Translations under genes and position numbers: made by a program
Shown: in pieces, positions 35,345-57,532 of the stretch
Layout of the letters: each line of letters begins with the position of its first letter
Numbering within the stretch: position 1 is the first letter of the stretch
Notes under the pieces: model-generated
The model's database searches: none
Seen by the model: the letters and a program-made list of their open reading frames with translations, nothing else
What the model was told of the DNA's origin: nothing
Assembly (NCBI GenBank): GCA_963714995.1
Contig: CAVQQP010000003.1
Location: 3,425-67,424, forward strand
Length of the DNA stretch: 64,000 nucleotides
DNA from: an uncultured Actinomycetes bacterium
GTDB lineage: Bacteria; Actinomycetota; Actinomycetes; S36-B12; CAIYMF01
Reading direction: 5' to 3'

Positions 35345-36109
35345 ATGCAGTGGCTGGTGCGCGGTGAGGGGCAGGTGCCCACGGGTCAGGACTGGCTGGT
35401 CGGGTCCGAGGCCGCGCGGGCCGCGGGGATGCGCTTCACGAAGCGCCGCAACGAGTACCTCGTGCGCCGGTACGCCGGCAAGTGCGCGGTGGCAGCGGCG
35501 GTCGGGCTCCCGGCTGATCCGATCAGCCTGGGGCGCATCGGCGTGCTCAACCGGATGACCGGCGCGCCCTACGTCGAGGTCGACGGCCAGCCGCTCGGCC
35601 TGGACATCTCCCTGACGGATCGGGCCGGGTGGGCGGTCTGCCTGGTCGGACCCGACCTCGGCGCGGTCGGGGTCGACCTGGAGATCGTCGAGCCGCGCAG
35701 TGCCGGGTTCGTCAGCGACTTCCTGACACCCGCCGAGCAGGCGGTCGTGGCGGGCGCCGAGGGGCCCGACGGACACGACGCAGCGGCCAACCTGATCTGG
35801 TCGGCCAAGGAGAGCGCCCTGAAGGTGCTGCGCACGGGCCTGCGAGCCGACACCCGGACCGTCGAGGTGGTCCTCGAGAGCCCGGCGGGGATCACCGCCG
35901 GGGCACAGCGTGCGGACGGGTGGCAGCGCCTGGCCGTGTCCTCGGGGGCCAGCCGGTTCCCGGGCTGGTGGCGCCGCGACGGGGTGTTCCTGCTCACCAT
36001 GGTCGCCGCGGCGGGTCTGGAGGACCCGCCACTGGCGCTGCCCGGCTCGGCCGACCTGACGACGGCCGAACCGATCCACTCGTGGGTGCACCACCCCCTG
36101 GCCGACTGA
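35345..36109 (+). CDS. Sfp-type 4'-phosphopantetheinyl transferase
   Basis: 'GAPYVEVDG', 'GVDLEIVEPR', 'WSAKESALKVL' (W/KEA motif). Intact, and convergent on the carboxylase-like gene with a 9-nt gap. Confidence 0.85.
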   Translation: MQWLVRGEGQVPTGQDWLVGSEAARAAGMRFTKRRNEYLVRRYAGKCAVAAAVGLPADPISLGRIGVLNRMTGAPYVEVDGQPLGLDISLTDRAGWAVCLVGPDLGAVGVDLEIVEPRSAGFVSDFLTPAEQAVVAGAEGPDGHDAAANLIWSAKESALKVLRTGLRADTRTVEVVLESPAGITAGAQRADGWQRLAVSSGASRFPGWWRRDGVFLLTMVAAAGLEDPPLALPGSADLTTAEPIHSWVHHPLAD

Positions 36110-36118
36110 CCCCGGAAC

Positions 36119-39100
36119 CTACGCGCCCGACTCCTCCTTGGCCATGCCGCGCTCGAGGGCGTCGATGACGTAGGGCCGCAGGTCCGCGGCGGAGATGATG
36201 CGGTCCACCGAGCCCATCTCCAGGGCCCGGTCGATCGTGTGCACCGCATCGAACTCGCTGGCCGCCTCACCGAGCTTCTCCGAGCGCACCTGCTCGGTGA
36301 TCTCGGCCAGCCGCGCACGTCGCTCGGTCGCCTCGGCCCCCGTGGTGCCGGCCAGCAGCTTCTTGGCCGCGACCACGCGGGGATCGGCGTCCACGCGCCC
36401 GCGGACCTCACGGGCGAAGACCGTGGCCGCCGCCGGGGCGCCACCGATCACCGACGCGTACGAGCCCTCGACGGCCACGACCTCCATCTGCGGGTTCAGG
36501 GCCTTGGAGAACACCACGAACGCACCACCGTGGTAGCGCGAGATGACCACGAACACGATCGGGCCCTTGAAGTTGGTGACCGCACGCCCGATCTCGGCGC
36601 CGTACTCCAGCTGCCAGTGCCGCATCGACTCCGGCGACCCGTCGAACCCGGACAGGTTCGCCAGCACGACCAGGGGCCGGTTGCCGCTCGCGGACGTCAC
36701 TGCGCGCGCGGTCTTGCGCGAGGCCTGCGGGAACAGCGTGCCCGAGGTCCAGGACGGCGGGCCGTCGGCCGGGACGAACCCACGGCGGGGGATGGGTCGG
36801 GACTCCAGGCCGAGCATGCAGACACTGATCCCGCCGACGCGCGCATCCCAGACCACGGAGTTCTCGCCCCCGCGCCAGCGCTTCCAGCGCTCCAGCGGCT
36901 CGCAGTCCTGGTCGGTGACCGAGCGCATCACCGAGCGCACGTCGAAGGGCTTCTTGCGCTCCGGGTTGTGCTCGGCAGAGAAGATGTCGCCCACGACCGT
37001 GAAGTCGCAGTCCGGCACCGCGGCGTGCGGGAACGGCCGCACGTCCCTGTTGAGGGGGTCGGTTGTCGCGATCCGGCGCGGGAACCGCTCGCCGGGCTTC
37101 ACGTACGTGTACTCGTAGTGGTGCAGGAGCAGCTGGCACGCGTCCGCCAACGACGGGGCCCAGTACTGCGCCTGCCCGTTGGGGCCCATCACGCGCTCGT
37201 AGCCGCCGATGCCGAAGTTGTCGTCGGCGGACACGCCCCCGGAGAAGTCCAGGGCCTGCTTGCCGGTGAGCACCATGGAGCTGCCCGGGGTCATGATCAG
37301 GATGCCCCGGGTGTGCAGCAGCATCGTGGCCTCGGCGTTCCAGTACGGCTGGCCGCCGACGTTGATGCCGGTCACGACGATGTTGATCTCGCCGCCGGCC
37401 TGGGTGAACTCGATGATCCTGCGCAGCGTGAGCGCGATCCAGTCCATGTTCTCGGTGCCGGACTCCATCGAGATCAGCGCGCCGGAGGAGACCGCGAACC
37501 ACTCGACGGGCACGCCCATCTGCGCGGCCAGGGCCAGGGCCGCGTTGACGATGCGGCACTCCGGCTCGGCGAGGTTGCCCAGGCCGCGGGTCGGGTCGGA
37601 CAGCATGATCACCCGGGTCATGCCCTCGGGGTAGGCCTCGGTGTAGGTGGTGAGCAGCCCGACGACGAGGTTCGAGCTGTTGAGGCCCGGCTCCCGCTCG
37701 ACCGGGATGAGGACCTCGCCGGACTCATCGAGGTCGTGCTCGACGAAGTGGGCGGGCAGGAACTTGCCGACCGTCCCCGGCTGCGGGGCGAACATCCGCA
37801 GGATCTCGAACGGGTAGGGCACCCCGAAGCGCTGGGCAGTCAGCACCTTCTGCCGGTAGCGCGTGAGCGGGCGCACGATGTCGTCGCGGACGGGCTCCTC
37901 GGTGACGGTGATGGCCCCGGTGATGATGCCGTCGACGTTGAACACCGTGGGCGTCAGGGTCCCGTCGGGCTGGGGCATCAGGGTGCGCAGGACGACCAGC
38001 TCCAGGCCGGCGCCGCCGGCGAGCGGGATCATGAGCTCGGCCAGGTCCGACCAGTGCTCCTTGGGCACCGTCCAGGGTGGGCGCACGAACAGCGTGATCC
38101 GGTTGGCCTGGGGTCGTCCCCGCTCCGGGAAGGTCGCGCGGGCGCGGCGCATGGCGATGATCGCCTGCAGGCCCATCCGCTCGAGCGTCGGATACCCGGG
38201 CTGGCCGCCGCGCGAGTCGGGGACGACCGTCATGTCGCGCACCTCGGCCAGGGCGAACAGCCGATGGTCCTTCGGGTTGTCCCGGGCGACGCCGTGGAAC
38301 AGGTAGACGTCCTCCATGGAGGGCAGCCGGGTCAGGTCGAAGTTCTCCAGGCGCCACAGCTCGAGTCGCTTGGCCAGCATCGGGTGCAGGTTGCGGTAGA
38401 AGCGGTCCTCGACCAGGTGCCCGTCCTCGCCGGTCCGGTACGTGAAGTACTGGGTCTGGTTCTCCGGGTCGATGTCGACGGCCAGGCTGGACACCGTCAC
38501 GTCCAGGCGCCAGATCGGTCGGCCGAGTCCCATCCGGCCACGTGCTCGGCGATCACCGCGGAGAGCTCGTCGCCGCTCGGGTGGCTGTCGGGGCGCCAGG
38601 TCATGACGTCGATGACCGGGTTGCGGCTCGGGTCCACGTCGGCCATGTGGGCGGCGACGGCCCGACCCACCGCGCTGATGTCCGAGAACGGCGTGAACGC
38701 CAGGACGACGTGGATCGAACGGCCCTCGAAGTCGTAGTCGGTGTGGCAGAGCATGATGCCCGCGACCTCCTCGACCTTCAGGTCGCGGATCGGGCGGGTC
38801 CGGTACCAGCGCCGGGCGCGGACCTCCAGCAGGGCCGCCTGCAGGTCCTTGTCGGTCGTGGCCATGCGCCGGCGCAGCAGCAGCTTGCGCATCGGCTGGG
38901 GGGCGTCCACCAGGGCTGCGATGCGCTCGGCGCGCTCGGGGCGGTTGGGATCCTCGGCAAGTGCGTCGAGGTGGGCCTCCATGCGGGCCTGCATCTGGGC
39001 GCGACCGGCCTCCACGACCGGCTCGTCGATGAACCGGAACCGTGCGTCCCGGGCGAGGTCGGCCACGGCCTCGAGCTGACCCTGGGTGGAGGCGGTCAGG

Positions 39101-40996
39101 CGGTCGTAGCGGATCCGAGCCGAGTCGTCGACGAACGGCAGGATCCGGTCGCGGTAGCGCAGGCGTCGCTCGAGGATCCCGGTCACCACCCGGGCCAGCT
39201 GCGGACGACGCGCCTGCGAGCCGAACAGCAGCACGACGGCCTGTTCCAGCTCAGGGCTGCGGTGCAGGTCGGTCACGCCGTAGCGGGCCAGGACCTTGGA
39301 CAGGCGGCGCCGCATCTGTACGGGCAGGCCGACGCGGTCCGGGTCCAGCCACTGGATGTAGCCCAGGAGGTACTCGCGGGCGGTGGTCACGACCAGGTCG
39401 GACTGGGGTCCGCTCTCCCGCTCGGACTGCCAGAGCAGGCCGAGGTCGGTGAACAGGTCCAGGAAGCCGTCCTCGGCGGCCAGCAGCTTCGTGTCGCCGG
39501 CGCTGGCGCGGTTGGCGAAGGAGCGCTGCTCGGACAGGAGTGCGGACAGGGACGCGGGGTCGAGCTCATAGCCCAGCAGGTAGCCGCGCAGCGCGGTGTA
39601 GACCCGGTCGAACGGGGGGCGACCCGACGTGTCGGACAGGGCCATGCCGGAGAAGCTGACACGGGAGCCGTTGGTCGGCTGGAGGCCCTTCTCCGCATCC
39701 CCGCGGGTCGCCGGGCGGATCAGCACCAGGGGGGCGCCGGCATCCACCTGCTCGTTGGGCAGCACCTCGACGGAGGTGACCGTGCCGGCGAACGGCGCCC
39801 GGAGGGTGGACTCCATCTTCATCGCCTCGGCGATGACCAGGGGGTCACCCTCGGCCACCTCCTGACCGGGGGCGACGGCGACCGAGACGATGAGCGCCGG
39901 CCACTGCGCACGCACGGCGATGCCCTCGTCGCGGTCGACGCGGTGGGCGATCCCGTCGATCTCCAGCAGGCAGCCGGTCCCGTGCGAGGCGATGACGACA
40001 TGCCGGTCGCGGCCCGCCGCCGTGACGGTCCACTCGAAGTCGTTCTCCCGGTCGATGGCCACCTCGGCCACGGCATCCCCGGAGTCGATGCGGTACGTGT
40101 GCGGCCCCGTCTGGAAGACCCGCAGGGCGTACTGCTGGCCGTCGTAGGTGAGGGTCGTGGACACGCCGGAGGCATCGACCGGCTCCGGGCGTCCCCGGGC
40201 GGCACGGGCATGGAACGCAGCGCGCTGGGTCTCGCGCTGGGAGTCGCTGGCCCGGACCGCCGAGACCAGGACGGCCACCGGGTCGGACTGAGGCCGGGAT
40301 GTCGCGGGGGTCCCGTCGATCTCGGCAGCGACTGCGGCAAGCAGGGCGGTGCGGTTGCAGGCCGAGCCCGCGACCACGACGGCACAGGCCTCCAGGGCAT
40401 GGCGCAGCCGGGTCAGGGCGGTGGCCCGGTCGCGGCCGTGGGCGACGATGCGCAGGGCAACGCCGGAGCCGATGGCGGCACCCACGGCCGCGCGCTCGAC
40501 CACGCGGATCCCCGGTCCCTGCGGCGGGCGCAGGTACAGGACCGGCGCGCCGTCGGGGGCATCGGCCGCGAACAGTCGTGCCTCGACCGCGTGCCCCGAG
40601 GCAGCCGGGGGCTCACCGTCGCGCAAGTGCGGCCAGGTCGATCCCCAGCAGCTCCTCAGCCAGGGCCCACCCGCCCAGGGGTGCGCCGTCCGGTTCGGCG
40701 TCCGGGGTGGCCGCAGGGGTCGGATCCGTGGTGACCGTCAACGCGATGTCGTGGTGGCCGGGACCGCGCTGCTGGGCGGCATCCCGGGCGACCTGGGCGG
40801 CCACCGCAGCGGCGGCAGGGTCCAGCGCGGGACCCTCCACGAGCGACCCCGCCATCAGCCCGGCCCCGGTGAGGGACCGGCAGGCAGGAAGGACCCACGC
40901 GCGACCGCGTGGGTCGACCACAACCGGTACTTCGACCTTCACGACCGCCACCTGCTCTGCCTCGGGTGTCCTCTTGCTCCGACGTGGTGCGCCCAT
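36119..40996 (-). pseudogene. single-chain eukaryote-like acyl-CoA carboxylase homolog: degenerate/truncated BC - BCCP - central region - carboxyltransferase; 2 frame breaks
   Basis: BC remnant 'VKVEVPVVVDPRGRAWVLP...ELLGIDLAALA' | 'RDGEPPAASGHAVEARLFAADAP...GIRVV', biotinyl 'PLVIAEAMKMESTL', central region, | CT 'NIVVTGINVGGQPYWNAEATMLLHTRGILIMT...GISVCMLGLESR...LANLSGFDGSPESMRH...ISRYHGGAFVV'. Breaks near 40620 and 38520. The ATG at 40996 lies 6 nt after the PKS stop. Confidence 0.8.
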
Positions 40997-41002
40997 GGTG
41001 CG

Positions 41003-41889
41003 TCAGTCCGCCATCACCGTGCGGATGGGTGCCTGCACATCATCGGCCAAGGGCTGGGGCAGTGTCACGGTGCGGTAGCCCTCCAGGCGGACCAGTACCG
41101 AACCCGAGGCATCGGTGACGAGGCAGTCGAACCCGTCCGGCCCCTGCTGGGCGGTGACGGTCAGCGGACCCTCGGCGGCCTCGCCCGCTGAGCCCAGCAC
41201 GACGGCACGGGTCACGTGCGTGGGCAGGGCCAGGCGGCCCGTCCCGACCGACCTCCCAGAGCCCGGCGGCCTGGAAGCACAGCTCGATCAGGCGGGGTGC
41301 GGCCTGGGTCGGCTGGTCACTCGGGACGTGGTTGGCCGGGAGGTCGGCGGCGAACTGCGCCGCCGAGCGGTCCCCGTCGCGCCACGCGGCGTCGATCACC
41401 TGGTAGGCCGGGCCGTGGAAGTACATCGCGTAGACGTCGTCCGCCGCGCACCTCCGCACCCTGCCGCGCCGGCGGGTCCTGGTGCTCGCCGTCGGGTGCC
41501 GACCTGGTGAGCCGGACGAGCCCGGTGAAGTGCGTCGTCCGGGTCGGGGCGTCGGACCCGGGCAGCTGGCGCTCGGCCTCGATCCGGCACTCGGCCAGCA
41601 GGTCGTCGCCGTCGGGACGCAGCAGGGCGGTGATCTCGATCGTGCGCGGCTCATCGCGGTAGAACTTCAGCGGGGCGAGGAAGTCGACGTCCTCGACGGC
41701 GGCCAGCGACCACTCCGGCGCCAGCAGTCGGGCCACCTCGACCATGCCCTCGATGCCCATCACGCCGGGCAGCAGGGCGGTGACGCGGTCACCTCGGTGG
41801 TCGTCGAGGAACGGCTGCTCCTTCGGGTCCAGCGTGGTGTGCACCGTGATCCCGTAGTTGACGCTGTCGCGCACGACCTCGCCGACCAT
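41003..41889 (-). other. PKS-type (double hot-dog) dehydratase domain
   Basis: '[21 protein letters not shown]' (HxxxGxxxxP), '[15 protein letters not shown]', 'LIELCFQAAGLWEVG'. It contains two of the frame breaks. Confidence 0.7.
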
Positions 41890-41990
41890 CGGGCCGGCCT
41901 GGGCGCACGCCTCGGCGAACGCTGCGGGGTCCACCCCGCCGGTCGGGTCGAACTCGGCGGCCATCATGCCCAGGGTGCCGGCCACCACGA

Positions 41991-43419
41991 CCTCGCCCGC
42001 GGGCACGCCGCTGGTGAGCTCGCGACGGATCCAGGCGATCCCCGCCTGCGGGGGCAGCATCTGGACGCCGGCGGCCTCCATGATCTTCGGGATCGACCCG
42101 CGGGTGGCCATCCCGATGCCGCCCCACGCGGTCCAGTCCAGCGCGATCGCGTGGGTGTCCGGACGGGTGCGCCGCATGCTGCTGGCGATCTTGCACAGCA
42201 GGTCGTTCGCGGCGGCGTAGTCGGTCTGGCCGGCGTTGCCGAACCGGCCGGCCACCGAGCTGAACCCGACGGTGGCGCCGATCGGCATGTCGCCGGCCGC
42301 GCTCATCAGGTTGAACCAGCCGTCGGCCTTGACGCCGAAGACGAGCTCGAACTCGGCGCGCTCCTTCTTCGCCAGGCCCTTGCTGATCTCCAGCCCGGCT
42401 GCGTGCAGCAGGACGTCGATGCGACCGTGCGCCGCGCGGATCTGCTCCACGATCGCCGCGACCGCCTCGCCGTCGCGCAGGTCGACGCAGTGGTAGTGCG
42501 CCGTCCCGCCCGCACTGGTGACGGCCTCGATCGCGGTCAGGGCGGAGGCCAGGCGCTCGAAGCGCGCCAGCTCCCGCTCGATGAGCACCGGGGTCGGCTT
42601 CTCGCCGCGGGCGGTGATCTGCTCGGCCAGGAACGGCTTCATGCTGTCCGGGTCGCTCAGGTAGCGCTGCAGCTCGGGGTCATCGGTGTCCGGGGCGGCC
42701 GCGAGGTCGAGCAGGTGGAACGTGCCCCCGGAGGCCTTCGCCAGGTCGGCGGTGATCGCCGACACGATGCTGCCGGCAGCCCCGGTGATCAGGAACACGG
42801 AGTCGCTGGTCAGCTCCATGGCGCCCGGGAGGGGCGCCTCGACGGCGGGGAACGGCTGGGTGCTCAGGCCCACGCCCCAGCGAAGGTCACCGAGGTGGCC
42901 GATCTCGACGCAGCCCGGGTCGGCCAGCGCCTCAGCGATCAGCGTGTCGGCCAGGGCCGCGGTCTTGCGGCTGGCGGGGAAGTCCACGGCCTTGACCAGG
43001 ACGTCGGCCCGCTCGCGCTTGTAGGACTTGGCGAACCCGACGACCGTTCCACCCAGCGGGGCCGTGGCGCCGGTCGCGCCGTAGCCGTGCTGCCCACCGA
43101 GGCGGGAGCCGGTGACGAGGAAGGGCTTGTCGTCGATCACCTGGTGGAACAGCGCGTGCAGCGCGACCACGCGCCGACGCAGGGCCTCGCGCCATGCGGC
43201 CAGGTCCATGGCGTCGGTCGAGCCCTCGTCGTCGAGGGCCGGCAGCCAGAACACGCCGGTCAGGGGTGACTCGGTGGTCCAGCCCGCCACGGCGGCGAGC
43301 AGGTCGTCGGTCGGCGTCTCGGCCTCCAGCGCCAGGACGTCGGCGCCCAGGCTGGTCAGCTTCTTGACCAGGGCCTTGCCCACGCCGCCCTCATCGAGGA
43401 CGACCAGGATCCGGGAGTC
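41991..43419 (-). other. ketoreductase domain (structural plus catalytic halves)
   Basis: '[15 protein letters not shown]', '[10 protein letters not shown]', '[22 protein letters not shown]'. Confidence 0.8.
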
Positions 43420-43617
43420 CGCACCGAGGGTGACCCCGGTGGCGGTGCAGGCGCCCAGGTCGGGGCGCAGGGCCGGGACCGGGACCCGCCGCGGCAGGGC
43501 GTCGACGGCCGCGAAGTCACCGACGAACGCCGGGGCGGTCGCGGCGGCGGTCGTCGCTGCCGGCGCAGCCTCGGCTGCCGGGGCGGCCTCGCCTGCCGCG
43601 GGTGCGGCGGTGGCGGG

Positions 43618-45222
43618 TTGGATGCCGGTCTTGTCGCGGACCCAGCCGATGACGTGGGTGAGGGTGGGGAAGTCGCGCAGTTGGAGGTTCTCGTCGCGTT
43701 CGACGTTGAACTTGTCGCGGACGGCGGCGAAGACCTCGGCCTGCTTGACGGTGTCGACGCCGAGGTCGGCCTCGAGGTCGAGGTCCAGGTCGAGCAGCTC
43801 GGCGGGGTAGCCGGTCATCTCGGCCACGATGGTCACGACGGCGTCGGTGACCTCGTCGGCTGCGGGGGCTGCAGGTGCAGCCGGGGCGGCGGTGGGTTGG
43901 TAGTCGATTCCGACGGTGGAGTGGTCGGTTTCGACTACCACCGCGGGGTGCGGCGGCGGTGGGTTGGATGCCGGTCTTGTCGCGGACCCAGCCGATGACG
44001 TGGGTGAGGGTGGGGAAGTCGCGCAGTTGGAGGTTCTCGTCGCGTTCGACGTTGAACTTGTCGCGGACGGCGGCGAAGACCTCGGCCTGCTTGACGGTGT
44101 CGACGCCGAGGTCGGCCTCGAGGTCGAGGTCCAGGTCGAGCAGCTCGGCGGGGTAGCCGGTCATCTCGGCCACGATGGTCACGACGGCGTCGGTGACCTC
44201 GTCGGCTGCGGGGGCGGCAGGTGCGCCGGGGCGGCGGTGCGGTTGGTGTCGATTCCGACGGTGGCAGTGGTCGGTTTCGACTAGCCGCCGCGGCGGGTGC
44301 GGCGGCGGCGGTGGGCTGGATGCCGGTCTTGTCGCGGACCCAGCCGATGACGTGGGTGAGGGTGGGGAAGTCGCGCAGTTGGAGGTTCTCGTCGCGTTCG
44401 ACGTTGAACTTGTCGCGGACGGCGGCGAAGACCTCGGCCTGCTTGACGGTGTCGACGCCGAGGTCGGCCTCGAGGTCGAGGTCCAGGTCGAGCAGCTCGG
44501 CGGGGTAGCCGGTCATCTCGGCCACGATGGTCACGACGGCGTCGGTGACCTCGTCGGCTGCGGGGGCAGCGGCGGCTGCGTGCTGTGGCGACGGGTGCCG
44601 GCAGCCGGGGCGCCGGGGCAGCGACAGCGGACGCCGCGGGTGCGGCGGCGGTCGGCTGGATGCCGGTCTTGTCGCGGACCCAGCCGATGACGTGGGTCAG
44701 GGTCGGGAAGTCGCGCAGCGCCACGTTGTCGTCGCGCTCGATGGCGAAGCGATCCCGGACGGCGGCGAAGACCTCGGCCTGCTTGACGGTGTCGACGCCG
44801 AGGTCGGCCTCGAGGTCCAGGTCGACGTCGAGGAGCTCGGCCGGGTACCCGGTCATCTCCGAGACGATCGCGATGACGGCGTCGGTGACCTCGTCGGCAG
44901 CCGGTGCAGCGGCGACGACCGGTGCCGCAACGGGTGCCGCGGCAGGGGTAGCCGGCACAGCGGCAGGGGCAGCCGTGACGGGTTGGATGCCGGTCTTGTC
45001 GCGGACCCAGCCGATGACGTGGGTCAGGGTCGGGAAGTCGCGCAGCGCCACGTTGTCGTCGCGCTCGATGTCGAACTTGTCGCGGACGGCGGCGAAGACC
45101 TCGGCCTGCTTGACGGTGTCCACGCCGAGGTCGGCCTCGAGGTCCAGGTCGACGTCGAGGAGCTCGGCCGGGTAGCCGGTCATCTCCGAGACGATCGCGA
45201 CGACGTCGGCGACCAGCGGGTC
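43618..45222 (-). repeat. five tandem carrier (ACP-like) domains; copies at 43620-43869, 43966-44215 and 44318-44567 are nucleotide-identical over 250 nt
   Basis: Each unit reads '[65 protein letters not shown]'. Period is 330-354 nt. Ala/Pro linkers. Identity of the three copies was checked by eye, base by base. Confidence 0.9.
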
Positions 45223-45575
45223 CACGACCGGGGCGCTGGGGGCTGCGGCGGGCGCGGCTGCCGGGGCCGCCACCGGGGCGGGGGCGGCGGCGGGTGCCGG
45301 AGCGGGTGCCGCGACCGGGGCAGTTGGCGGGACAGCAGCGAACGCCGCGGCAGGGGCAGCCGGAGCCACGGGGACGGCGGGCGCAGCCGGGGCGGCCGGA
45401 GCGGCGGACGGGGCGCCGGTGTCGACGATGCGCAGTCGGTGATGGTCCACCTCGAGGGTGGCGCCGGCCCGGCCGGCAGCGGCGGCCAGCCAGCGCTCCC
45501 ACGCGGCCGGGTCCACGATCCGGTAGGCATGGCCCAACTCGCTGGGGGCACGACGACGACCGTCGGGCATGGGGG

Positions 45576-47086
45576 TCCAGCGCAGCAGCGTCATGGCGAT
45601 CTGGGAGCCGAAGCCGGCGGCCAGGCGCAGCGCGTAGTTCACCGGGTAGGCGCCGCCGAGGGACAGGTTCAGGGTGCCGAGCTCCGGGTCGGGCTCCTTG
45701 TAGTTGGGCACCGGCGGGACGATGCCGGTCTCCAGGGCCTTGATCGCCACGACGTCCTCGATGCCGGCGCCCATGGCGTGGCCCGTGAAGCCCTTGGTGT
45801 TGGTGATCACGATGGAGCTCGCGGCGGCACCGAACACGCGGCGCAGCGCGTTGACCTCCGCGGCGGCCGAGCCGCCCCGGGCCGGGGTGTAGGTCTCGTG
45901 GGACACGAACACCGTCTGCGGGGCGATCTGCGTGCGGTTGATCCCGCGGGCCTCGGCGGTGCGCACGAGGCTCTCCATGACCTGGCCGACGTGGTCGACG
46001 TCCAGGCGGGTTCCGTGGAAGGCGCTGTTGGCGGTGACCGATGGCGAGCACCTCGCAGATCGGCTGCAGGCCACGCTCGCGCACGGCCTCGGCGGACTCG
46101 ACGACGAACGCCGCAGCGCCCATGCCGACGACCATCCCGTGGCGACGGCGGTCGAACGGAGTCGCCACCTCGCTGACGACGTCACCGGTGGCGGCGGCCC
46201 CGGAGGCCAGGAAGCCCGACCCGACCCAGGGCAGCAGCACGTCGCTGGTCACGTCGTCGGCGGACACCACGACCACGCGGCGGCAGCGTCCGGTGCGGAT
46301 CCAGTCCTCGGCCAGCGACACGGCCTGGGTGGTGCTGGCGCACGCGGCGTTGATCTGGGTGTTCGGCCCGCGGGCGCCGATCATCTCGGCGAACTGGGAG
46401 TGGCCCATGGCCAGGCAGCGGAAGATGAAGCGGCGGTCGTACTCGAAGCGCTCGACCTCCAGCAGGTGGCGCAGCTCGGCCAGGCGACGGTCGACCTCGG
46501 CGGCAGCCGGCTCGGTGCCGGTCATCCGGGCGCGGACGGCCTCGAGGGCCAGGACCTGCTCGCGCCGGCCCCGGTCGGTCATGTACTTCTCGATGTCGGC
46601 CGCGAACTCCCCGTATCCCGGGAACGCCGAGGCGAAGATGACGCCGGTGTCATCGCGCATCGACTCCGGCAGGCCCCACTTCTCGGGCAGCATCGTGCCC
46701 AGGGTCGTGGACCGGTAGTGCATGACCAGGGGGATGCCCGCGTCGCGCAGGGCGTCGAGCCCCGCTCCGAGCGCCAGGCGGGTGGTGCGGTCCAGGGCAG
46801 CGTCGCGGGCCGCGTCGACGCCGAACTCCGCCACGACGTCCAGGGGTGCGCCGCGGCCAGCCAGCTTGATGACGCCGGCCTCGTCGTCGATCAGCTCGAA
46901 CACCGGGTCCTGCCCGGCCTTCTTCACCAGGCGGGTGATCCGCTTGTCGACGATCGCCTCGCGGAAGCGGTGCGGGATCACGTCGATGAACTGCTGGCCG
47001 TCGAGGATGCGCGCGAGGTTCTCGTCGTCGAACACCCGGTCGACTCCGGGCAGGCCCAGCGCGGCGCCGGTGATCGCCACCGGAGC
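45576..47086 (-). other. KS2 domain, second complete ketosynthase with a long N-terminal insertion
   Basis: 'VAITGAALGLPG', about 240 aa later 'NTQINAACASTTQAV', 'SAFHGTRLD', 'NTKGFTGHAMGAGIED', 'AAGFGSQIAM'. A frame break near 46041 falls inside it. Confidence 0.75.
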
Positions 47087-47475
47087 CGTCGAGACCTGCG
47101 TCGGCCCACCGGTGGACGCCGGCGCGCCGACGACGCCGGGCTCGCCGGAGTACACCCGAAGCCCCTGCTCCAGCACGCCGGCGAACAGCCGGCCCAGTTC
47201 CTCGTAGCGGGCGGTCGACATGGGGATCCTCGGGGTCGGGGCGGACGTGGTGACGGAAGCCGCGGGGGCGGCCGGTGCGGCCACCGGTGCGGCTGCGGCG
47301 GGAGCCGCTGGGGGAGTCGGCGCCGTGGCGGGTGCGGCGGCCGGGGACGCGACCGGCGCAAGGCCCAGCCCGGAGGCGTACAGCCCGCAGAGCGCCTGGT
47401 TGAACGACGCGATGTCGCCGAACTTCGGGTGATTGGTGAACAGTGCCAGGACGTCGTCGTGCTGGGAGCCGAGCA

Positions 47476-48364
47476 CCTCCTCGACGAAGCCGTGCAGGGC
47501 CTTCTTCGGCCCGACCTCGACGAACACGCGGGCGCCGGCCTCGTAGAGGGTGTGCAGGCCCTTGACGAACTGCACCGGCTCGGCGATCTGCCGGCCGAGG
47601 ATCTCGAGCATGTCCTCGGTGCTGGCCCGCTCCGGGTAGAACTCCCCGGTCACGTTGGCCACGATCGGCAGCTGAGGTCCGCGGACCTCGAGCCGGCGCA
47701 TGGCGACCTTCAGGGGCTCGCTGGCGCCCGCCACGATCTGCGTGTGGAAGGCGTGCGACACCGGGATCCGCATGGCGGTCATGCCCGCGGCCTGGAATGC
47801 GGCCACGGCGGACTCCACCGCGGTCGTGGCCCCACCGATGACGGCCTGGGTGTTGGAGTTGATGTTGGCGACGACGACGTAGCCCTCGACCTCGGCCACG
47901 ATCCGCTCGATGTCGGCCAGCGGGCCGAACACGGCAGCCATCGCGCCGTTGTCGGCCTGCGAGACGTGGGTCATCTCGCGGCCGCGTGCGCTGACGGCCT
48001 CGAGCGCCGCGTCGAAGGAGAGCGCGCCGGCGGCCACCAGTGCCCCGTACTCGCCGAGGCTGTGCCCCATCACCAGGTCCGGGGTGATCCCGTAGGCGGC
48101 CAGCAGCTGGGCCATGGCAGCGTCGGTGGTCAGCACCGCGGGCTGGGTGATCTCGGTCTGCAGCAGCTGGGCGTTGAGCCGCGAGACGGCCTCGGGGTCC
48201 GCGGCGTCGGCGAACACGTACTCCGACAGCGGCTTGCCCAGCAGCGGGGTCATGATCCGGTCGGCCTCGTCGTAGATGTCGCGGACGATCGGCTCGTGCG
48301 CGCGCAGCTCGGCGAGCATGTTGACGTACTGCGACCCCTGGCCGGTGAACAGGAACGCGACCTT
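47476..48364 (-). other. acyltransferase domain, malonyl-type
   Basis: 'FLFTGQGSQY', 'GHSLGEYGALVAAG', 'IPVSHAFHT' (HAFH). Confidence 0.85.
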
Positions 48365-48795
48365 CGGGGCCGGTCCGCGGCCGACGAACACGCCCTGGGA
48401 GCGCAGCAGCTTCCACATGGCCGGGTTGTTGGCGCCGAACGCGCCGATGGCCTTGTCGGCCTTCTTGGCCAGGTCGGCGGCGTCGGCGTAGTCGATCGCC
48501 ACGCGGATCGCGGCGTCGGCCAGGGCCGGGTCAGGTGCCCCCGGGGCGGGGGTCCGCCCGGCGGCGGCCTCGGCGGCCAGCGCCGTCAGCTGGGCGACCA
48601 CGTCGGCCTCGTCGCGGCCACCGACCACGGCGGCCCCGCGCAGGGGTGCCTTGCGTGCGGCGGGGGCCGCCACCACCGGAGCCGCGGCTGGCGCGGCGGG
48701 CGCGGTGGCGGCGGTGGGCGCGGTGGTCGACCCGGGGATGTCGGCGCCGGCGAACACGCGCGCGGCGTCGGGTGCGCGGTGCCGACCGGGCACGT

Positions 48796-50195
48796 ACTCC
48801 TCGAGGGCCACGTGGAAGTTCGTGCCGCCGAAGCCGAAGGCGCTGACGCCCGCGCGACGGGGATCGGACCCGGAGTGGGTCCACTCGCGCAGCTCGGTGT
48901 TGACGCGGAACGGAGTCGCGGCCCAGTCGACGTTCGGGTTGGGGTCGTTGAAGTGCAGGCTGGGGGGGAGCACCTTGTCGTTCAGGCTCATGATCGTCTT
49001 GAACAGGCCCGCCGCGCCGGCGGCCGCCTTGAGGTGACCGATGTTCGACTTGACCGACCCGAGGGCGATCGACCCGGGTGCCGCCCCGTGGGCCGCGAAG
49101 ATCTCGTCGAGGGCGCCGAGCTCGGTGGCATCGCCGACCCGGGTCGAGGTGCCGTGCGCCTCGAGCATCCCGATCGAGACCGGATCGGCTCCCGCGTTCT
49201 CCCACGCCCGGGCGACAGCGAGCTTCTGCCCGATCGGGTTGGGGGCGGTGATGCCCTTGCCCTTGCCGTCCGAGGAGCCGCCGATGCCGAGGATGACCGC
49301 GTACACGTGGTCCCCGGCCCGCTCGGCGTCCGACAGTCGCTTGAGGACGAACAGGGCCGCACCCTCGCCCATCACGAAGCCGTCGGCGCCGGCGTCGAAC
49401 GGACGGGTTCCGGTGGCCGACAGGGCGCCGATCTTGCAGAAGCGCACGAACGCCCCGGGACCCATGTTGTGGTCGATGCCGCCGGCGATGGCGGCGTCGT
49501 AGTGGTGGGCCTGCAGGCCGGCGATCGCCGCGCTCATGCCGGCCAGCGCCGACGCGCATGCGGCATCCGTGGTGAAGTTGGGCCCACGCAGGTTGAAGAG
49601 CGCGGCGACCCGGCCGGCCATGATGTTGGCCAGCTCGCCGGGCATCGTGTCCTCGGTGATGGTGGGCAGGCCGGAGACGAACCGCTCGCGGGCCTCGCTG
49701 CGGATCGCCGCCTGCACCTCCGCCGGCAGGGCCGCGAACGACGGGGACAGGGTCAGCTCGCGGTCGAACTCGGGGTAGGCGATGCGCAGCGTGGTGCGCA
49801 CGTACTTGTCCCCGCCGAGCGCGCTGCCGAGGATCACGCCGACACGGTCGGAGTCCACGTCCCAGCTGGGCCACCCGGCGTCGAGCAGGGCCGAGCGCGC
49901 AGCGCTGACCGACCACATCTGGCCCTCGTCGAAGTGCGCGCGCCACGCTCGGCGGCACGGGCAGCTTCCACGCCATCGGCTCCCACGGGAACTCCCGGAC
50001 CCAGCCGCCGATCTTCGAGTACGTCTTGTCCTCGGGGCTGTACGGGTCGGCGTCGTAGAACAGCTCCGGGTCCCACCGCTCGACGGGCACCTCGCTGATG
50101 GAGTAGCGGCCCCCACGGATGTTGGACCAGAAGTCCTGGGCGGTGGGGGCGTCGGGCATGATCGCGCTGACGCCGACGACGGCGATCGGCTCGGG
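48796..50195 (-). other. KS1 domain (PfaA-type ketosynthase)
   Basis: 'IAVVGVSAIMPDA', 'DTMPGELANIMAGRVAALFNLRGPNFTTDAACASAL', 'EAHGTSTRVGD', 'GSVKSNIGHL', 'FGFGGTNFHVALEE'. Confidence 0.85.
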
Positions 50196-50247
50196 CTGTG
50201 TCATGTCATGTCTCCTGGGGGAAGCGCGCGGGGACTGTCAGGAAGGG

Positions 50248-51912
50248 TCAGGCGTACAGCACGTCGGCCAGTGCTGTCATGTCGGAGATGAGACCTGCCT
50301 GTGCGGCGCGGATGGCGTCCAGCCGCAGGGTGCTCGGCAGGGTGGCGGTCAGGCCGAGGCTGGGGTCGGCGGAGCCGATGACCCAGCGCATGCCCTCCTC
50401 GCCGGCCTTCATCGCGGCCTCGCGGGCGAAGACCCGGGCGATGATGGCCAGGGCGTCGGCGTCGAAGCGCCGGTTGGCCTTCTCCGCCAGCGTCCCGTCG
50501 GCGGCAGCCGCGGCACGCCGGCACAGCGCACCGGCACACTCCACGTTGGCCACCAGCTCGCCGAGGCGGAACAGCACGTGCTGGTTGCGCGTGAGCCGAC
50601 CGGCCTGGCATGCCGAGAAGACCCCGGCCAGGGCCTCGAACGCCAGCGCGGAGACGTCAGCCCCGACCTTCGGGCTGCGGGCGTGCAGGGCGCTCATCTC
50701 CTGGGCGGCAGCCAGGTAGTAGCCGCCGCGGGACTTCAGGTGCTCCTGCCAGCGGTCGCGGGCGATGGTCATCTCGAGGATCTCGGAGGTGCCCTCGTAG
50801 ATCGTCGTGATCCGCACGTCGCGCTTGATCTTCTCGACCGTGTACTCGCGGGTGAACCCGTAGCCGCCGAGGGCCTGGATGGCATCCTCGGCCGCCCGGT
50901 TGCCGGACTCGGTGGCCAGGTACTTGGCGATGGCGCCCTCGGTGTTCAGCGCGCCGTCGGGGCCCTCACCGGCGTCGATGCGCGTGGAGGTCTCCTCGAT
51001 GAAGGCGCGCGCGGCCTCGAGGCGGGCGACGTGCGGGACGATCAGCTTGTGGGTGTAGCCCTGCTTCTCGGCCAGCGGTGACCCGCCGGAGATGCGCGTC
51101 TTGGAGTACTCGATCGCGCGGTCGACGGCCTCCCAGCCGCCGCCGAGGCCGAACGCGGCCACCATCACGCGGGTGTAGCCGAAGACCTGCTGGGCCTGCA
51201 CGAGGCCCTTGCCCTCGACGCCGCCGATCATGTTCTCGATCGGCACCTCGACGTTGTCCAGGTACAGCGCCGCGGTGTTCGACAGCCGGATGCCGTGCTT
51301 GTCCTCGGGCTTGGCGCTGGTGAAGCCCTCGGTGCCCTTCTCCAGGACGAACCAGGTCGGCCCGCCGGGGGCCAGGGCCAGGATCGTGGTGGCGTCGGCG
51401 ATCGTGCCGTTGGAGATCCACTGCTTGGCGCCGGTGATCCGGTAGCCGGTGACCTCGCCGTCGACCTCGATCGGGACCGCCTTGGTCTTCATCGCGCCCA
51501 GGTCGGAGCCGGCCTCGGGCTCGGTGGCGCCGTACGCGAACACCATGCCGTCCTCGGCGATCGCCCCCAGCCACTTCTCCTTCTGCTCCTCGGTCGCGCC
51601 GACCAGGATCGGGTCGCTGCCCAGGAAGGTCGCGAAGATCGCGGTGGCCAGGCCGATGTCCTTGCGGGCCATGACCTCGCAGAGCAGGTAGGAGTCGAAC
51701 GCCCCGCCGCCCATGCCGCCGTAGGCCTCAGGGACGAAGACCAGCTGGATGCCCAGGTCGGTCGACATCGCGCGCACCGTGTCCTCGGGGCAGATGTCCT
51801 CGTGGTCGAGCTCCAGCTGGCGCTCGGGCGGCAGCGCATCGGAGAGGTACTCCTTCAGGCCGTCCAACATCAGGCCGAGCGTCTCGGCGTCCAGCCCCTG
51901 ATCAGTGTTCAT
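50248..51912 (-). CDS. acyl-CoA dehydrogenase family protein with about 170-aa C-terminal extension
   Basis: 'FAYGATEPEAGSD', 'ITGAKQWISNG', 'GYGFTREYTVEKIKRDVRITTIYEGTSEI'. AGGAGG precedes the ATG. Intact. It ends 43 nt upstream of the PKS start. Confidence 0.9.
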   Translation of the reverse strand: MNTDQGLDAETLGLMLDGLKEYLSDALPPERQLELDHEDICPEDTVRAMSTDLGIQLVFVPEAYGGMGGGAFDSYLLCEVMARKDIGLATAIFATFLGSDPILVGATEEQKEKWLGAIAEDGMVFAYGATEPEAGSDLGAMKTKAVPIEVDGEVTGYRITGAKQWISNGTIADATTILALAPGGPTWFVLEKGTEGFTSAKPEDKHGIRLSNTAALYLDNVEVPIENMIGGVEGKGLVQAQQVFGYTRVMVAAFGLGGGWEAVDRAIEYSKTRISGGSPLAEKQGYTHKLIVPHVARLEAARAFIEETSTRIDAGEGPDGALNTEGAIAKYLATESGNRAAEDAIQALGGYGFTREYTVEKIKRDVRITTIYEGTSEILEMTIARDRWQEHLKSRGGYYLAAAQEMSALHARSPKVGADVSALAFEALAGVFSACQAGRLTRNQHVLFRLGELVANVECAGALCRRAAAAADGTLAEKANRRFDADALAIIARVFAREAAMKAGEEGMRWVIGSADPSLGLTATLPSTLRLDAIRAAQAGLISDMTALADVLYA

Positions 51913-52059
51913 CGTTTCCTCCTACGCGGACTTCCCGCTCAGGCTAGGGGCGCGATGGGTCGCGATGGGCGGTCGAAGTGACCCCGTTGGCGGGACCTAG
52001 GACTGTTACCGGTGGGTATCGGTCTCGGGGCGCTCAGCCCCGATGCCCGGGCCCCGGGA

Positions 52060-53511
52060 TCAGACCGGGGCAAGTCCGGCGAGCAGGTGCTCGACGACCT
52101 TGCGGGCCGGGTACGGACCTCCGCCGGACCCGTTCGAGGCCAGTGCGTGGACCGCCCGGAAGTCGTCGCCGGAGGTGACGATCGCGGGCTCGGTGGACCC
52201 GTCCGGACGTTGCTGGGGGAGGTCGGCGGCCGCGAGCAGGGCGTTGCACAGGCACTTGCGGCCCTCGGCGTTCGCAGCCCGACCCCCCTTGCGGGTGTAC
52301 ATCGCCAGCGGCTCGGCGGGGCAGCGGTAGTCGATCTCGCCGTTGGCCTTCTTGTACGGCGTGCGCAGGGCGCCGAGGTCGCACACGGCCTTGCGGGCGG
52401 CGGCGACCTCCGGGTCGCTCACCGTGCCCTCGAGCTGGATGACCCGGAACGGGAACCCGGTCGGGGAGGCCCGCCAGTCGCTGCGGACGTCCAGGGTCCC
52501 GGCCAGGACCTCGCTGAGCACCTGGCGCTTGAGCGAGTCGGCCAGCCCGGACTCCGCGCTGTAGGCGAAGGCCGTGCCGACCTGGACCCCCTGGGCGCCG
52601 GCAGCCTTGGCCTGGGCCAGGCCCTCGGGGGTGCCGTACGCGCCGGCCAGCCAGAACGGCAGCCCGACCGCCGCCACGGCGCTGAGGTCGACGGAGTCGC
52701 GCTCGTCGTAGACCGGCTGGCCGAGATCGTCCACCCGCCGGGGGCCGCGTGGCGGGGCGTTGTGCCCGCCGGCGCTCGGCCCCTCGACGATGAACCCGAA
52801 CGGGCGGGTCGCCGGGTCCCCGGCCAGGCCGGCGGCGAGGTCCACCGACGCGATGATGGCCAGGAACCGGGGCAGGGGCAGGTCGCGGCCAGCATCGCCG
52901 AGGAGCTCGGTCGGGCTGCAGCGCACCGTGACCGGGGCGTCGTCGGAGCGCAGGCCCTGGGCCCGGACGCCGAAGTCGAGGTCCTCCCCGTTGGCCAGCG
53001 AGCGGATCATGCCCGGGATCTCCGCCGGGTTCCCGGCGCCGATCAGCACGTAGTCGACGCCCGCGAGCATGGCCCCGAGCAGGCCGAAGGGCAGCGGGAT
53101 CTCGATCTTGCGCAGGAAGTTGATCCCGACCGGGCCGCTGTGCTCCTGCTTGGCCAGCCAGACCTCGCAGAACGAGCCGACGATCGTCAGCTCCTGCAGG
53201 GCCACCGGCGGGGTGATCGTGAACCGTGGGACGGCCTTGAACGCCGCGTCCGGAGCCTTGCCGCCGTGGATGTAGTACTGCTTCATCACCCGCAGGGCCA
53301 TCGCCGGGATCGGGAAGGCGGCCAGCGCCCTGCGCATGTGGCCACCGGGATCGCCGGCCTGCAGGCGCCGGGCGCACACCACGTCCAGCGCGGTGCCGGA
53401 GACCACTCCCAGCTCGCCGGCCTGGCAGACGGCCCGGGCCAGCTCCCACCCGGAGACGGCCACCCCCATCCCGCCCTGGATGATCGTGGGAAGGACGTCC
53501 TGGTCGTTCAT
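52060..53511 (-). CDS. nitronate monooxygenase-fold protein (PfaD/FabK-like trans-enoyl reductase candidate)
   Basis: 'IIQGGMGVAVSGWELARAV..AGELGVVSG', 'GAGNPAEIP', 'EGPSAGGHN', 'AGAQGVQVGTAF'. Intact. Confidence 0.8.
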   Translation of the reverse strand: MNDQDVLPTIIQGGMGVAVSGWELARAVCQAGELGVVSGTALDVVCARRLQAGDPGGHMRRALAAFPIPAMALRVMKQYYIHGGKAPDAAFKAVPRFTITPPVALQELTIVGSFCEVWLAKQEHSGPVGINFLRKIEIPLPFGLLGAMLAGVDYVLIGAGNPAEIPGMIRSLANGEDLDFGVRAQGLRSDDAPVTVRCSPTELLGDAGRDLPLPRFLAIIASVDLAAGLAGDPATRPFGFIVEGPSAGGHNAPPRGPRRVDDLGQPVYDERDSVDLSAVAAVGLPFWLAGAYGTPEGLAQAKAAGAQGVQVGTAFAYSAESGLADSLKRQVLSEVLAGTLDVRSDWRASPTGFPFRVIQLEGTVSDPEVAAARKAVCDLGALRTPYKKANGEIDYRCPAEPLAMYTRKGGRAANAEGRKCLCNALLAAADLPQQRPDGSTEPAIVTSGDDFRAVHALASNGSGGGPYPARKVVEHLLAGLAPV

Positions 53512-53551
53512 GGCACCACCTGCGGTTGATCGGCTTGGCTACGCAACCGTA

Positions 53552-53569
53552 ACCTACGCTGACGTAGGT
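53552..53569. promoter_or_regulatory. 18-bp palindrome ACCTACG-CTGA-CGTAGGT, 41-58 nt upstream of the enoyl-reductase start
   Basis: Read directly. It overlaps the stop codon of the upstream hydrolase ORF. A role as an operator is inference only. Confidence 0.3.
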
Positions 53570-55869: not shown

Positions 55870-55898
55870 GAGCGTCGCCTGCGGCGTCTCGTCGGCCG

Positions 55899-56396
55899 TC
55901 AGCCGGCGTGCCGTCGGGCCAGGACCCGTGCCTGCACCGACAGGATCCAGCCGACGAGGTCCTTGTCGATCATCGACTGGACCTTGCCCGCCAGGGGGAA
56001 GGGCAGTGACGCCTTCGTGCTCGTCGAGGTCGCCAGGGTCGAGCCGTCGTCGGCGACGAGCAGCTGCGACGTGCCCAGCGAGGTGGCCTTGGGTGAGCCG
56101 AGAAGGTGCACCTCGAGCGTGCCCTCGGAGCCCTCGTCGGTCAGCGGACCCCACTCCTGCATCCAGGACAGGCGGACCTCGCCCGGCAGCAGCTTCTGCG
56201 CCAGCTCGGGGATCCCGGGCTTGGAGGTGGAGAACCGCCACTGCATCGTCGCCACCGCGCGCTCACCGGAGCTGTCGCAGGTCAGGGAGTCGACCTCGAC
56301 GCCCACCTCCGTGGCGAAGGCGTGCAGGAAGTCCTCGCTGATCAGGTCGGCGTGCACCGTGGCGGGCGAGATGGACAGATCGAAGCTGTGTTCCAC
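55899..56396 (-). CDS. DUF2505 / SRPBCC-fold protein
   Basis: 'VEHSFDLSISPATVHADLISEDFLHAF...' fits the family length and pattern. The GTG start at 56396 is assumed; ATG at 56456 or 56552 is possible. Confidence 0.6.
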   Translation of the reverse strand: MEHSFDLSISPATVHADLISEDFLHAFATEVGVEVDSLTCDSSGERAVATMQWRFSTSKPGIPELAQKLLPGEVRLSWMQEWGPLTDEGSEGTLEVHLLGSPKATSLGTSQLLVADDGSTLATSTSTKASLPFPLAGKVQSMIDKDLVGWILSVQARVLARRHAG

Positions 56397-56523
56397 GGGG
56401 TCATTGTGGCGGGTCCGGGGCGCAGGCGGGCCACCAACACGGTCCCGGGGCTGCATGGGTGCCTGCCTCGGGCTAGCGTCGGGCGCCAAGGCAGTGCCCG
56501 CCACCAGCCGCGAAAGGGTCGCG

Positions 56524-57414
56524 ATGAGCCCCTCCGACGAGACGTCCCACACGGATCTGCCGAACTACCCGCTGAGTCTGGCCCGCGCGGTGGCACCGTG
56601 GAAGCGCTCGGCGAACGCGACCACCGTCCTGCCCGAGTCGGAGTCCATGGTCACCGGCTGGCGGCCGGACCGCGAGCGGCTCGCGGCCTACCGATCCCTG
56701 GTGGGCTCCGGTGCGGAGATCCCGATCGCCTTCCCGCAGCTGCCGATCATGGCGCTGCACATCGACCTGCTGTCCCGGTGGTCGTTCCCTGTCCGGGCAC
56801 TGGGCCTGATCCACCAGGGGGCCGTCATCGACGTCCTCGACGACGTGCCGGTCGGCGGGCCCTGGGACGTGCGGGCTGCCGTGTCGGAGGGTCGGCATGT
56901 GCGCGCGGGGCTCGAGTTCGACGTCTCCGGCGAGGTGAGCGTCGGTGGTGCCCTCTGCTGGCGCTCCACGTCGACCTACCTCTCCCGCAGCCGCTCGGCC
57001 AGCGGTGCCGAGGAGTCGGCCGTCCCGCAGCTCGACTCCTCCGGGGAGTGGGAGGCCGAGGTCGGGATCCCGGTGGCCGAGGGGACCGGGCGCGCGTTCG
57101 GCCGGGTGACCGGGGACATCAACCCCATCCACATGCACGCCGTGCCGGCCAAGGCCTTCGGGTTCCCGCGGGCGATCGCGCACGGCTGGTGGACCACCGG
57201 GCGCGCTGCCGCGGAGCTCGGCGTCGACGAGGCCGTCCCCGGCCGCCGGCTGCAGATCGCCTTCAGGCGGCCGATCGTGCTGCCGTCCACGCCCGTCCTG
57301 TGCTCGCGGTCCGCGGCGTCCGGCGGCGTCGAGTTCGCGCTGTTCCCGGTGTCGCCCGCGGCAGGCGGGGACGATCCGGTGCGGGCGCTGGTCGCGGGGA
57401 TCGTCACCGGCTGA
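56524..57414 (+). CDS. MaoC-like double hot-dog (R)-hydratase/dehydratase
   Basis: 'FGRVTGDINPIHMHAVPAKAFGFPRAIAHGWW' hydratase-2 motif in the C-terminal half. It occupies only the last 297 codons of the 1257-aa ORF 53641..57414. Confidence 0.8.
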   Translation: MSPSDETSHTDLPNYPLSLARAVAPWKRSANATTVLPESESMVTGWRPDRERLAAYRSLVGSGAEIPIAFPQLPIMALHIDLLSRWSFPVRALGLIHQGAVIDVLDDVPVGGPWDVRAAVSEGRHVRAGLEFDVSGEVSVGGALCWRSTSTYLSRSRSASGAEESAVPQLDSSGEWEAEVGIPVAEGTGRAFGRVTGDINPIHMHAVPAKAFGFPRAIAHGWWTTGRAAAELGVDEAVPGRRLQIAFRRPIVLPSTPVLCSRSAASGGVEFALFPVSPAAGGDDPVRALVAGIVTG

Positions 57415-57532
57415 GCTGGGGCGGCGGTCGGGGCCGGGTCCCGTGCGTGTCGAGCGTGCGCACCCACGCGCCCGGGAGGGCAGAATCGTCGATGTGCCTG
57501 CCGCCGATGGACCTGCCCGGGGGGCAGGTGCG

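Follow-up and report, generated by a model that had tools for sequence, protein, structure and literature searches.

Is a serine indispensable at the site where carrier proteins receive their phosphopantetheine arm? A Ser acceptor is regarded as a defining and invariant trait of acyl, peptidyl and aryl carrier proteins, and the PROSITE phosphopantetheine pattern requires it at the acceptor position. The question is raised by a stretch of DNA of 64,000 nucleotides from an uncultured Actinomycetes bacterium (assembly GCA_963714995.1, contig CAVQQP010000003.1, positions 3,425 to 67,424; hereafter the window), which codes for a megasynthase with five tandem acyl carrier protein (ACP) domains. An earlier examination of the letters of the window by a model, made without database searches (the sequence-only reading), had claimed that all five have Thr in place of this Ser. 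Our analysis finds that Thr fills the canonical Ser site by both sequence and fold, and that it is invariant under purifying selection in a family of related synthases. It also makes it likely that this Thr is the phosphopantetheine acceptor, served by a dedicated phosphopantetheinyl transferase (PPTase) encoded in the same cluster.

Threonine at the acceptor site of five tandem carrier domains

The five PP-binding (ACP) domains are arrayed on the minus strand between positions 43615 and 45228 as part of one very large gene with the domain order KS-AT-KS'-ACPx5-KR-DH, and Tandem Repeats Finder describes the region as a 346-nt unit repeated 4.7 times over 43595-45186. Translated from that strand, each unit displays a shared TGYPAELLD(L/V) stretch leading to the acceptor motif, and in all five the acceptor-site codon is ACC, specifying Thr. 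The sequence-only reading had these codons right; the DNA strings that it gave for ACP1 and ACP2 (gtggacaccgtc and gtcgacaccgtc) are likewise correct, and its grouping of the units into a diverged pair, ACP1 and ACP2, and a near-identical trio, ACP3-5, is upheld. Its description of the array needs amendment in two respects: the gene lies on the minus strand, and the array is broken by frameshifts. The five units are distributed over three reading frames in the window assembly. The long open reading frame (ORF) at 44531-50116 (1861 aa) spans ACP1 and ACP2 in the wrong frame, and a Pfam scan of it therefore missed both.

The register of the motif was established in three ways. First, against the PP-binding hidden Markov model (HMM) PF00550 each kind of unit scores 30-31 bits, above the gathering score of 20.8, across the whole domain (profile positions 1-66/67), with the Thr falling on the attachment site and not on a different, Ser-containing position. 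Second, in phmmer alignments to solved ACPs the Thr stands opposite the serine of the DSL motif, namely that of LGVDSI in PigH, LDVDSL in the Streptomyces coelicolor fatty acid synthase (FAS) ACP and LGADSL in the Aquifex protein. Third, in an AlphaFold2 model of ACP5 (44 homologs; mean pLDDT 82) it is the first residue of helix II, and the best Foldseek matches of this model are all canonical ACPs, with target TM scores of 0.83-0.88 and rmsd values of 1.3-1.8 Å; the predicted model is a four-helix bundle in which helix II opens with the acceptor position. What these domains depart from is the invariant Ser of the (D/E)LGxDS(L/I) motif, which is replaced by Thr in five of the five window copies and in every copy of the related loci described below. 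Translation, together with the HMM, pairwise and structural alignments, hence confirms the claim of Thr in all five carriers.

A mis-registered motif or an alternative Ser as the attachment site is ruled out, since the three kinds of alignment are concordant and ACP3, ACP4 and ACP5 have no Ser at all; ACP1 and ACP2 have a single non-conserved Ser each, in helix I.

As for the linkers, those between ACP4 and ACP5 and between ACP3 and ACP4 (43864-43960 and 44210-44312, minus strand) feature a short polar insert, and are not purely Ala/Pro. This insert repeats along with the ACP unit, and in the array of the ortholog at locus L003 it reads HGTDQQIDDSVHTN.

Conservation of the threonine across a widespread family

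A word-indexed search with one ACP as the query returned 846 matches, and all 120 of the matches listed have the motif DLG[VI]DTV. Searched exhaustively with phmmer, a set of 1.84 billion cluster representatives yielded 6056 proteins with E<=1e-3, of which 806 reached E<=1e-30. In the best 150 of these 6056 proteins we typed every ACP copy against the Thr position of the query: Thr occurs in 410 copies, with the motif (E/G)(A/S)DLG(I/V)DT(V/I)KQ(A/V)E; Ser occurs in 184, which belong to clearly distinct sister groups (the classical PfaA proteins with DSIKRVEIL, a group with DSIKKAQLF and a few others); and four others are odd or spurious. When one genome was scanned for each GTDB species, at least 570 loci were obtained, 80 of which were kept for analysis; in these and the window Thr is present in 282 of 282 ACP copies, a count that has to be read with the search pattern in mind, as it demanded one Thr per locus and leaves the other copies as the unbiased ones, the unbiased survey being the typing of the best 150 phmmer proteins.

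The Thr codons of the 282 copies are ACC in 147, ACG in 130, ACA in three and ACT in two. Since all four Thr codons are in use, the amino acid has remained invariant through synonymous turnover, and the Thr is under purifying selection. The sequence-only reading had argued that conservation across diverged copies within the array speaks against a random lesion, an argument that holds, and on a larger scale, given the invariance of the Thr over many phyla; the survey of orthologs also finds it in intact genes and not only in decayed copies. An origin of the Thr in sequencing error or lesion can be discarded, as the 282 copies come from independent assemblies, including isolate genomes, and use four different codons.

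In a set of 19 diverse Thr-type domains, T19, G20, Y21, E33, L36, G37, D39, T40, K42, Q43 and T69 do not vary, T40 being the acceptor-site Thr. The Ser-type relatives P0219 and P0253, and the Ser-bearing copy of P0208, have the TGY motif too; hence, it is T40 and its immediate neighbors that constitute the distinguishing conserved site, and the comparison with these Ser-type relatives uncovered no other conserved residue specific to the Thr-type domains.

The hosts span at least seven phyla, with representatives in Actinomycetota (including Acidimicrobiia), Acidobacteriota, Chloroflexota (Kouleothrix and Oscillochloris), Myxococcota, Gemmatimonadota, Leptospiraceae and Bacteroidota, and include isolates of Amycolatopsis, Planobispora and Nonomuraea. 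The number of tandem ACPs varies from three to seven across the family. One representative, P0270, a Thr-type megasynthase with a fused PPTase, is recorded from a metagenome-assembled genome (MAG) of a Thermoplasmatota archaeon, and the all-Ser relative P0219 from a Heimdallarchaeota MAG; these records suggest either transfer into archaea or binning contamination. In P0121, a full-length protein with six copies, PP-binding domains go unreported at E<=1e-5, and single Thr-type domains score about 30 bits. Automated annotation thus probably under-calls Thr-type carrier domains, and the existence of a natural Thr family would account for their weak scores and missed annotation.

The frameshifts in the window raise the alternative that the array, and indeed the whole gene, is a decaying pseudogene in which the Thr is irrelevant to this genome. 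Alignment of the intact L003 ortholog to the window places changes of frame in the synthase gene at approximately 49960, 46042, 44600, 44300, 43950, 41450 and 41239, with those at 44600, 44300 and 43950 falling within the ACP array, and in the adjacent acetyl-CoA-carboxylase-like gene at approximately 40628 and 38527. A count of at least seven breaks in one gene and at least two in the next, with five ACPs spread over three frames, speaks in favor of decay. Against this, the sequence between the indels is highly conserved: coding signal and conserved residues are intact, the G+C content at third codon positions (GC3) is 0.85-0.96 in the inferred frames, the ACP copies share 82-94% identity with their L003 counterparts, and the window gene shows no in-frame stops or substitutions at conserved sites. 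Moreover, the breaks are scattered over many genes of the window. The nearest relatives among the genomes are MAGs whose isolate names begin with MFD and which we take to be nanopore (long-read) assemblies of the Microflora Danica project, and frame breaks recur in many of them (e.g., L001, L002, L005 and L009), whereas the gene is a single open frame of 2.8-3.3 thousand codons in the Amycolatopsis isolate (L011) and many other assemblies; the intact single-frame orthologs include L003, L007 and L011. Because the orthologs are intact, we read the frameshifts of the window as most likely errors of long-read assembly rather than decay. Genuine decay is accordingly an improbable account of the window, and one that would in any case touch this copy alone and not the Thr as a trait of the family.

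Similar fragmentation is seen in other genes of the window, where ORF pieces follow one another on the same strand, for example at 53554-57662. Public gene calls very often break the array up into "proteins" of 95-145 aa that contain one ACP each and end in nonsense tails, and such repeat-linked frame errors recur across many assemblies.

A cluster-encoded PPTase and the candidate acceptor

Searches with the window proteins (tblastn) against the 80 loci revealed a conserved gene order: an acyl-CoA dehydrogenase family (ACAD) gene, the megasynthase, the acetyl-CoA-carboxylase-like gene and the PPTase. The carboxylase-like gene is present in most loci, and where it is absent the PPTase directly follows the megasynthase. 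Of the 72 loci in which the KR-DH region is present, 53 gave a PPTase match; 15 of the other 19 end within or just past the carboxylase-like gene or the KR-DH region. The window enzyme is a member of the Sfp-type PPTases, scoring 50.3 bits against PF01648 (cut-off 25), with the G-x-D-L-E motif corresponding to D107 and E109 of Sfp and the W-S-x-K-E motif to its E151, both conserved in at least 85% of 65 PPTases of the family. Among solved structures, a profile of this family picks out AcpS, EntD, Sfp and human AASDHPPT. Further, 11 Thr-type megasynthases among the best 150 representatives have the PPTase as a C-terminal fusion. Since the only carrier domains of these fused synthases are of the Thr type, the fusions provide strong circumstantial evidence that those domains are the PPTase substrate.

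Hence, we infer from conserved synteny and fusion both that the modification would occur on the Thr and that the PPTase of the cluster would install it. The sequence-only reading had left three options, namely modification of the Thr by the adjacent PPTase, use of another residue and a dead array; the invariance of the Thr, the lack of Ser in ACP3-5, the intact orthologs and the synteny or fusion of the PPTase favor the first. In the mechanism we propose, the five domains would be the working acyl carriers of an iterative "secondary lipid" megasynthase, KS-AT-KS'-ACP5-KR-DH, akin to the synthases of polyunsaturated fatty acids (PUFAs), with a Thr at the N-terminus of helix II as the family-wide 4'-phosphopantetheine acceptor. 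The Sfp-type PPTase would move phosphopantetheine from CoA onto the Thr hydroxyl, and the resulting holo-domains would present malonyl and acyl groups, bound as thioesters, to the KS, AT, KR and DH domains in cis, while the carboxylase of the cluster would provide malonyl-CoA. On balance, we also favor the more general proposition that these domains typify a widespread carrier family, comprising thousands of proteins from at least seven phyla and some archaeal MAGs, that is naturally 4'-phosphopantetheinylated on Thr by a co-evolved Sfp-type PPTase. The strict retention of Thr might, speculatively, confer orthogonality to housekeeping enzymes of the AcpS/AcpH type or yield a phosphodiester that is more resistant to beta-elimination.

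Several observations weigh against Thr as the acceptor. The S36T variant of Escherichia coli ACP is reported to be unmodifiable and non-functional (PMC3340395); hence, modification of Thr would need a PPTase of different tolerance. The domains studied here share with E. coli AcpP the four-helix fold and an acceptor position located where helix II begins, but their Thr is native and conserved. On the side of the enzyme, an alignment to Sfp and to the PPTase of P0219 brought out no residue that accounts for Thr tolerance, a comparison that is underpowered with one close Ser-type sequence; and the Ser-type P0219 has a PPTase of the same subfamily, so that the enzyme is not visibly specialized for Thr. 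Four loci, L003, L018, L023 and L039, have no PPTase match despite at least 1.2 kb of further sequence in the fetched flank. The Thr demanded by the genome-scan pattern is a further caveat, and PPTase modification of Thr is not described in the open-access full-text literature that was searched.

The S36T result would also suit a different interpretation: the Thr-type domains could be unmodified "pseudo-carriers" with a structural or docking role, while the synthase uses a separate Ser-bearing ACP or CoA-bound substrates. The modest Pfam scores of about 30 bits per domain, and the full-length proteins such as P0121 that have no PP-binding report at strict thresholds, might be taken in the same sense. 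However, we found no additional canonical ACP in the synthase; the intact ortholog L003 has only four PP-binding domains, all of the Thr type, and no stand-alone ACP was recognized in the conserved synteny. Conservation within the domain is highest at the D-T-V-K-Q site, which a mere spacer would not lead one to expect, and a dedicated PPTase, adjacent or fused, would be left without a substrate.

The Ser-type relatives bear on the same issue. P0219 has five ACPs, all with Ser and reading DLGIDSVKVAEIF, in the architecture KS-AT-KS'-ACP-KR-DH-PPTase with the same fused type of PPTase. Its nearest relatives in the set are the Thr-type P0262 (54% identity) and P0149 (52%), each over about 2000 residues, and it nests within the Thr-type group in a KS tree, the quality of which is a reservation, it being a neighbor-joining tree without support values. 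The array of P0208 is mixed, its first ACP having Ser (DSIKQAEAF) and the next two Thr. Since P0219 nests among the Thr types and P0208 combines both, Ser and Thr are, going by these proteins, evolutionary alternatives at one functional position; the occurrence of Ser in place of Thr in these two relatives is at odds with a pseudo-carrier role, which we hold to be unlikely.

Another possibility, to be viewed as decidedly remote, is that the Thr bears a group other than phosphopantetheine (through direct oxo-esters, another prosthetic group or phosphorylation), or that the attachment lies elsewhere, for example on T19 of the TGY motif or on T69. Both of these residues are invariant too, and a sequence analysis like ours does not directly identify the chemistry. 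However, the presence of TGY in P0219, P0253 and the Ser copy of P0208 means that the Thr family does not have this motif to itself; the enzyme that is co-inherited is a PPTase whose Mg/CoA-binding and catalytic motifs are intact; and the Thr occupies the exact structural position used by PPTases at the N-terminus of helix II. Condensations of the KS type, as established in FAS and polyketide synthase (PKS) chemistry, are Claisen reactions that depend on thioesters.

A carrier protein with a Thr acceptor is apparently unreported: neither Thr-linked phosphopantetheine, nor the DTVKQ motif, nor this type of cluster is described in the open-access full texts searched, among them Shulse & Allen 2011 and a survey of PUFA-synthase-like clusters from 2026. 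The latter checked ACPs for "the conserved Ser residue", treating it as required. If our interpretation of the Thr as the acceptor is right, this is probably the first instance in nature of this cofactor attached to Thr, i.e., the first O-(phosphopantetheinyl)threonine in biology; the "invariant serine" rule that governs FAS, PKS and nonribosomal peptide synthetase enzymology would be broken, and PPTase chemistry would reach as far as a secondary alcohol. It would also offer a possible carrier/PPTase pair orthogonal to the housekeeping AcpS/AcpH, which could be used in biotechnological tagging. The finding points to a putative specificity determinant in a divergent PPTase clade and draws attention to an abundant, uncharacterized lipid synthase of soil and wastewater (ACAD, KS-AT-KS'-ACPn-KR-DH, carboxylase, PPTase).

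The megasynthase, its neighbors and its known relatives

The coordinates of the carrier domains, of the remaining domains of the megasynthase and of the neighboring genes are collected in Table 1.

Table 1. Carrier domains, megasynthase domains and neighboring genes in the window
Feature	Position	Strand	Remarks
ACP1	44980-45228	minus	Thr codon ACC 45115-45117
ACP2	44653-44901	minus	Thr codon ACC 44788-44790
ACP3	44313-44561	minus	Thr codon ACC 44448-44450; no Ser; frame differs from ACP2
ACP4	43961-44209	minus	Thr codon ACC 44096-44098; no Ser; third reading frame
ACP5	43615-43863	minus	Thr codon ACC 43750-43752; no Ser; domain used for AlphaFold2 model
Megasynthase, whole gene	41009-50219	minus	KS-AT-KS' ("CLF" with Cys)-ACPx5-KR-DH; at least 7 frameshifts relative to intact ortholog L003
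Ketosynthase (KS) domain	48790-49933 (approximate)	minus	PF00109/PF02801
Acyltransferase (AT) domain	47467-48355 (approximate)	minus	PF00698; FabD-like
Second KS-like domain (KS'), "CLF" position of Type R	45690-46900 (approximate)	minus	active-site Cys in NAACAST
Ketoreductase (KR) domain	42120-42693 (approximate)	minus	PF08659
PKS-type dehydratase (DH) domain	41009-41892 (approximate)	minus	
Acetyl-CoA-carboxylase-like gene	36119-40915	minus	biotin carboxylase C-terminus, BCCP, ACC_central, carboxyltransferase; at least 2 frameshifts
Sfp-type 4'-phosphopantetheinyl transferase	35345-36109	plus	intact 254-aa ORF; G-x-D-L-E and W-S-A-K-E conserved
Acyl-CoA dehydrogenase family gene (ACAD)	50248-51921	minus	directly upstream of synthase
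NMO/PfaD/FabK-like enoyl reductase	52060-53538	minus	upstream

Downstream of the synthase the carboxylase-like gene is followed by the PPTase gene, which is convergent on the plus strand. The carboxylase-like protein is a single polypeptide in the eukaryotic style, and its gene is lodged between those of the synthase and the PPTase in most related loci across phyla. The ACAD gene adjoins the synthase upstream in nearly all related loci; as the synthase has no enoyl reductase domain, the ACAD may serve as an enoyl reductase or a desaturase for intermediates bound to the ACPs. The PfaD/FabK-like gene, by contrast with this wide distribution, is seen among the related loci only in the closest relatives, L001-L003 and L012. 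The second KS-like domain retains the active-site Cys, unlike classical chain-length factors (CLFs), as NAACAST in the window and NSACAST in L011 (aa ~1300-1350), and may be a second active ketosynthase.

The architecture is closely paralleled by the "Type R" secondary lipid synthases (Shulse & Allen 2011, PMC3098273), in which a single pfaA homolog with the order KS-MAT-CLF-ACP(3-6)-KR is followed by a PPTase. These were reported from Koribacter, Solibacter, Roseiflexus and Elusimicrobium, with an uncharacterized product, and in Koribacter an acetyl-CoA carboxylase gene lies between the synthase and the PPTase (PMC3098273). The window cluster shares with them the domain order in a single pfaA homolog, the tandem ACPs and a downstream PPTase with the carboxylase-like gene intervening as in Koribacter, and the two have the phyla Acidobacteriota and Chloroflexota in common. 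It differs in the additional C-terminal DH domain and in the conserved upstream ACAD; moreover, the present family is abundant in Actinomycetota, which Shulse & Allen filed under other types, such as Type M. The megasynthase family thus matches Type R, an assignment made by architecture and phylum overlap alone. The words "serine" and "threonine" do not occur in that paper (PMC3098273), and the Ser-to-Thr change goes unmentioned in it.

The closest characterized relative is classical PfaA of the marine PUFA synthases (TIGR02813). Common to both are the KS-AT-ACPn-KR-DH layout, an Sfp-type PPTase encoded in the cluster (PfaE in the marine systems) and tandem ACPs with a KTGYP...DLGID motif, those of PfaA reading LGIDSIKRVEIL. 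The attachment residue of PfaA is Ser, however, and PfaA has no second KS between the AT and the ACPs and requires PfaB, PfaC and PfaD; the classical PfaA proteins also group apart, in a clade of their own, in the same neighbor-joining KS tree. PfaA is also the best NCBIfam match of the KS-AT, ACP and KR parts of the window synthase, but at 526.6, 168.8 and 51.4 bits against a cut-off of 1010.1, which leaves it outside that family; no family-specific NCBIfam model attains its cut-off on any protein of the cluster.

The PPTase resembles the Sfp, HetI and EntD types in its length of about 250 aa, its PF01648 domain and its GxD(L/I)E and WSxKE motifs. It is nevertheless very divergent, scoring 20 bits against a HetI equivalog cut-off of 370, and its family has invariant motifs of its own, GAP and GLRxDTR, besides a presumed Thr rather than Ser substrate. 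Databases give the related proteins of these clusters generic names, "SDR family NAD(P)-dependent oxidoreductase" and "acyl carrier protein" among them.

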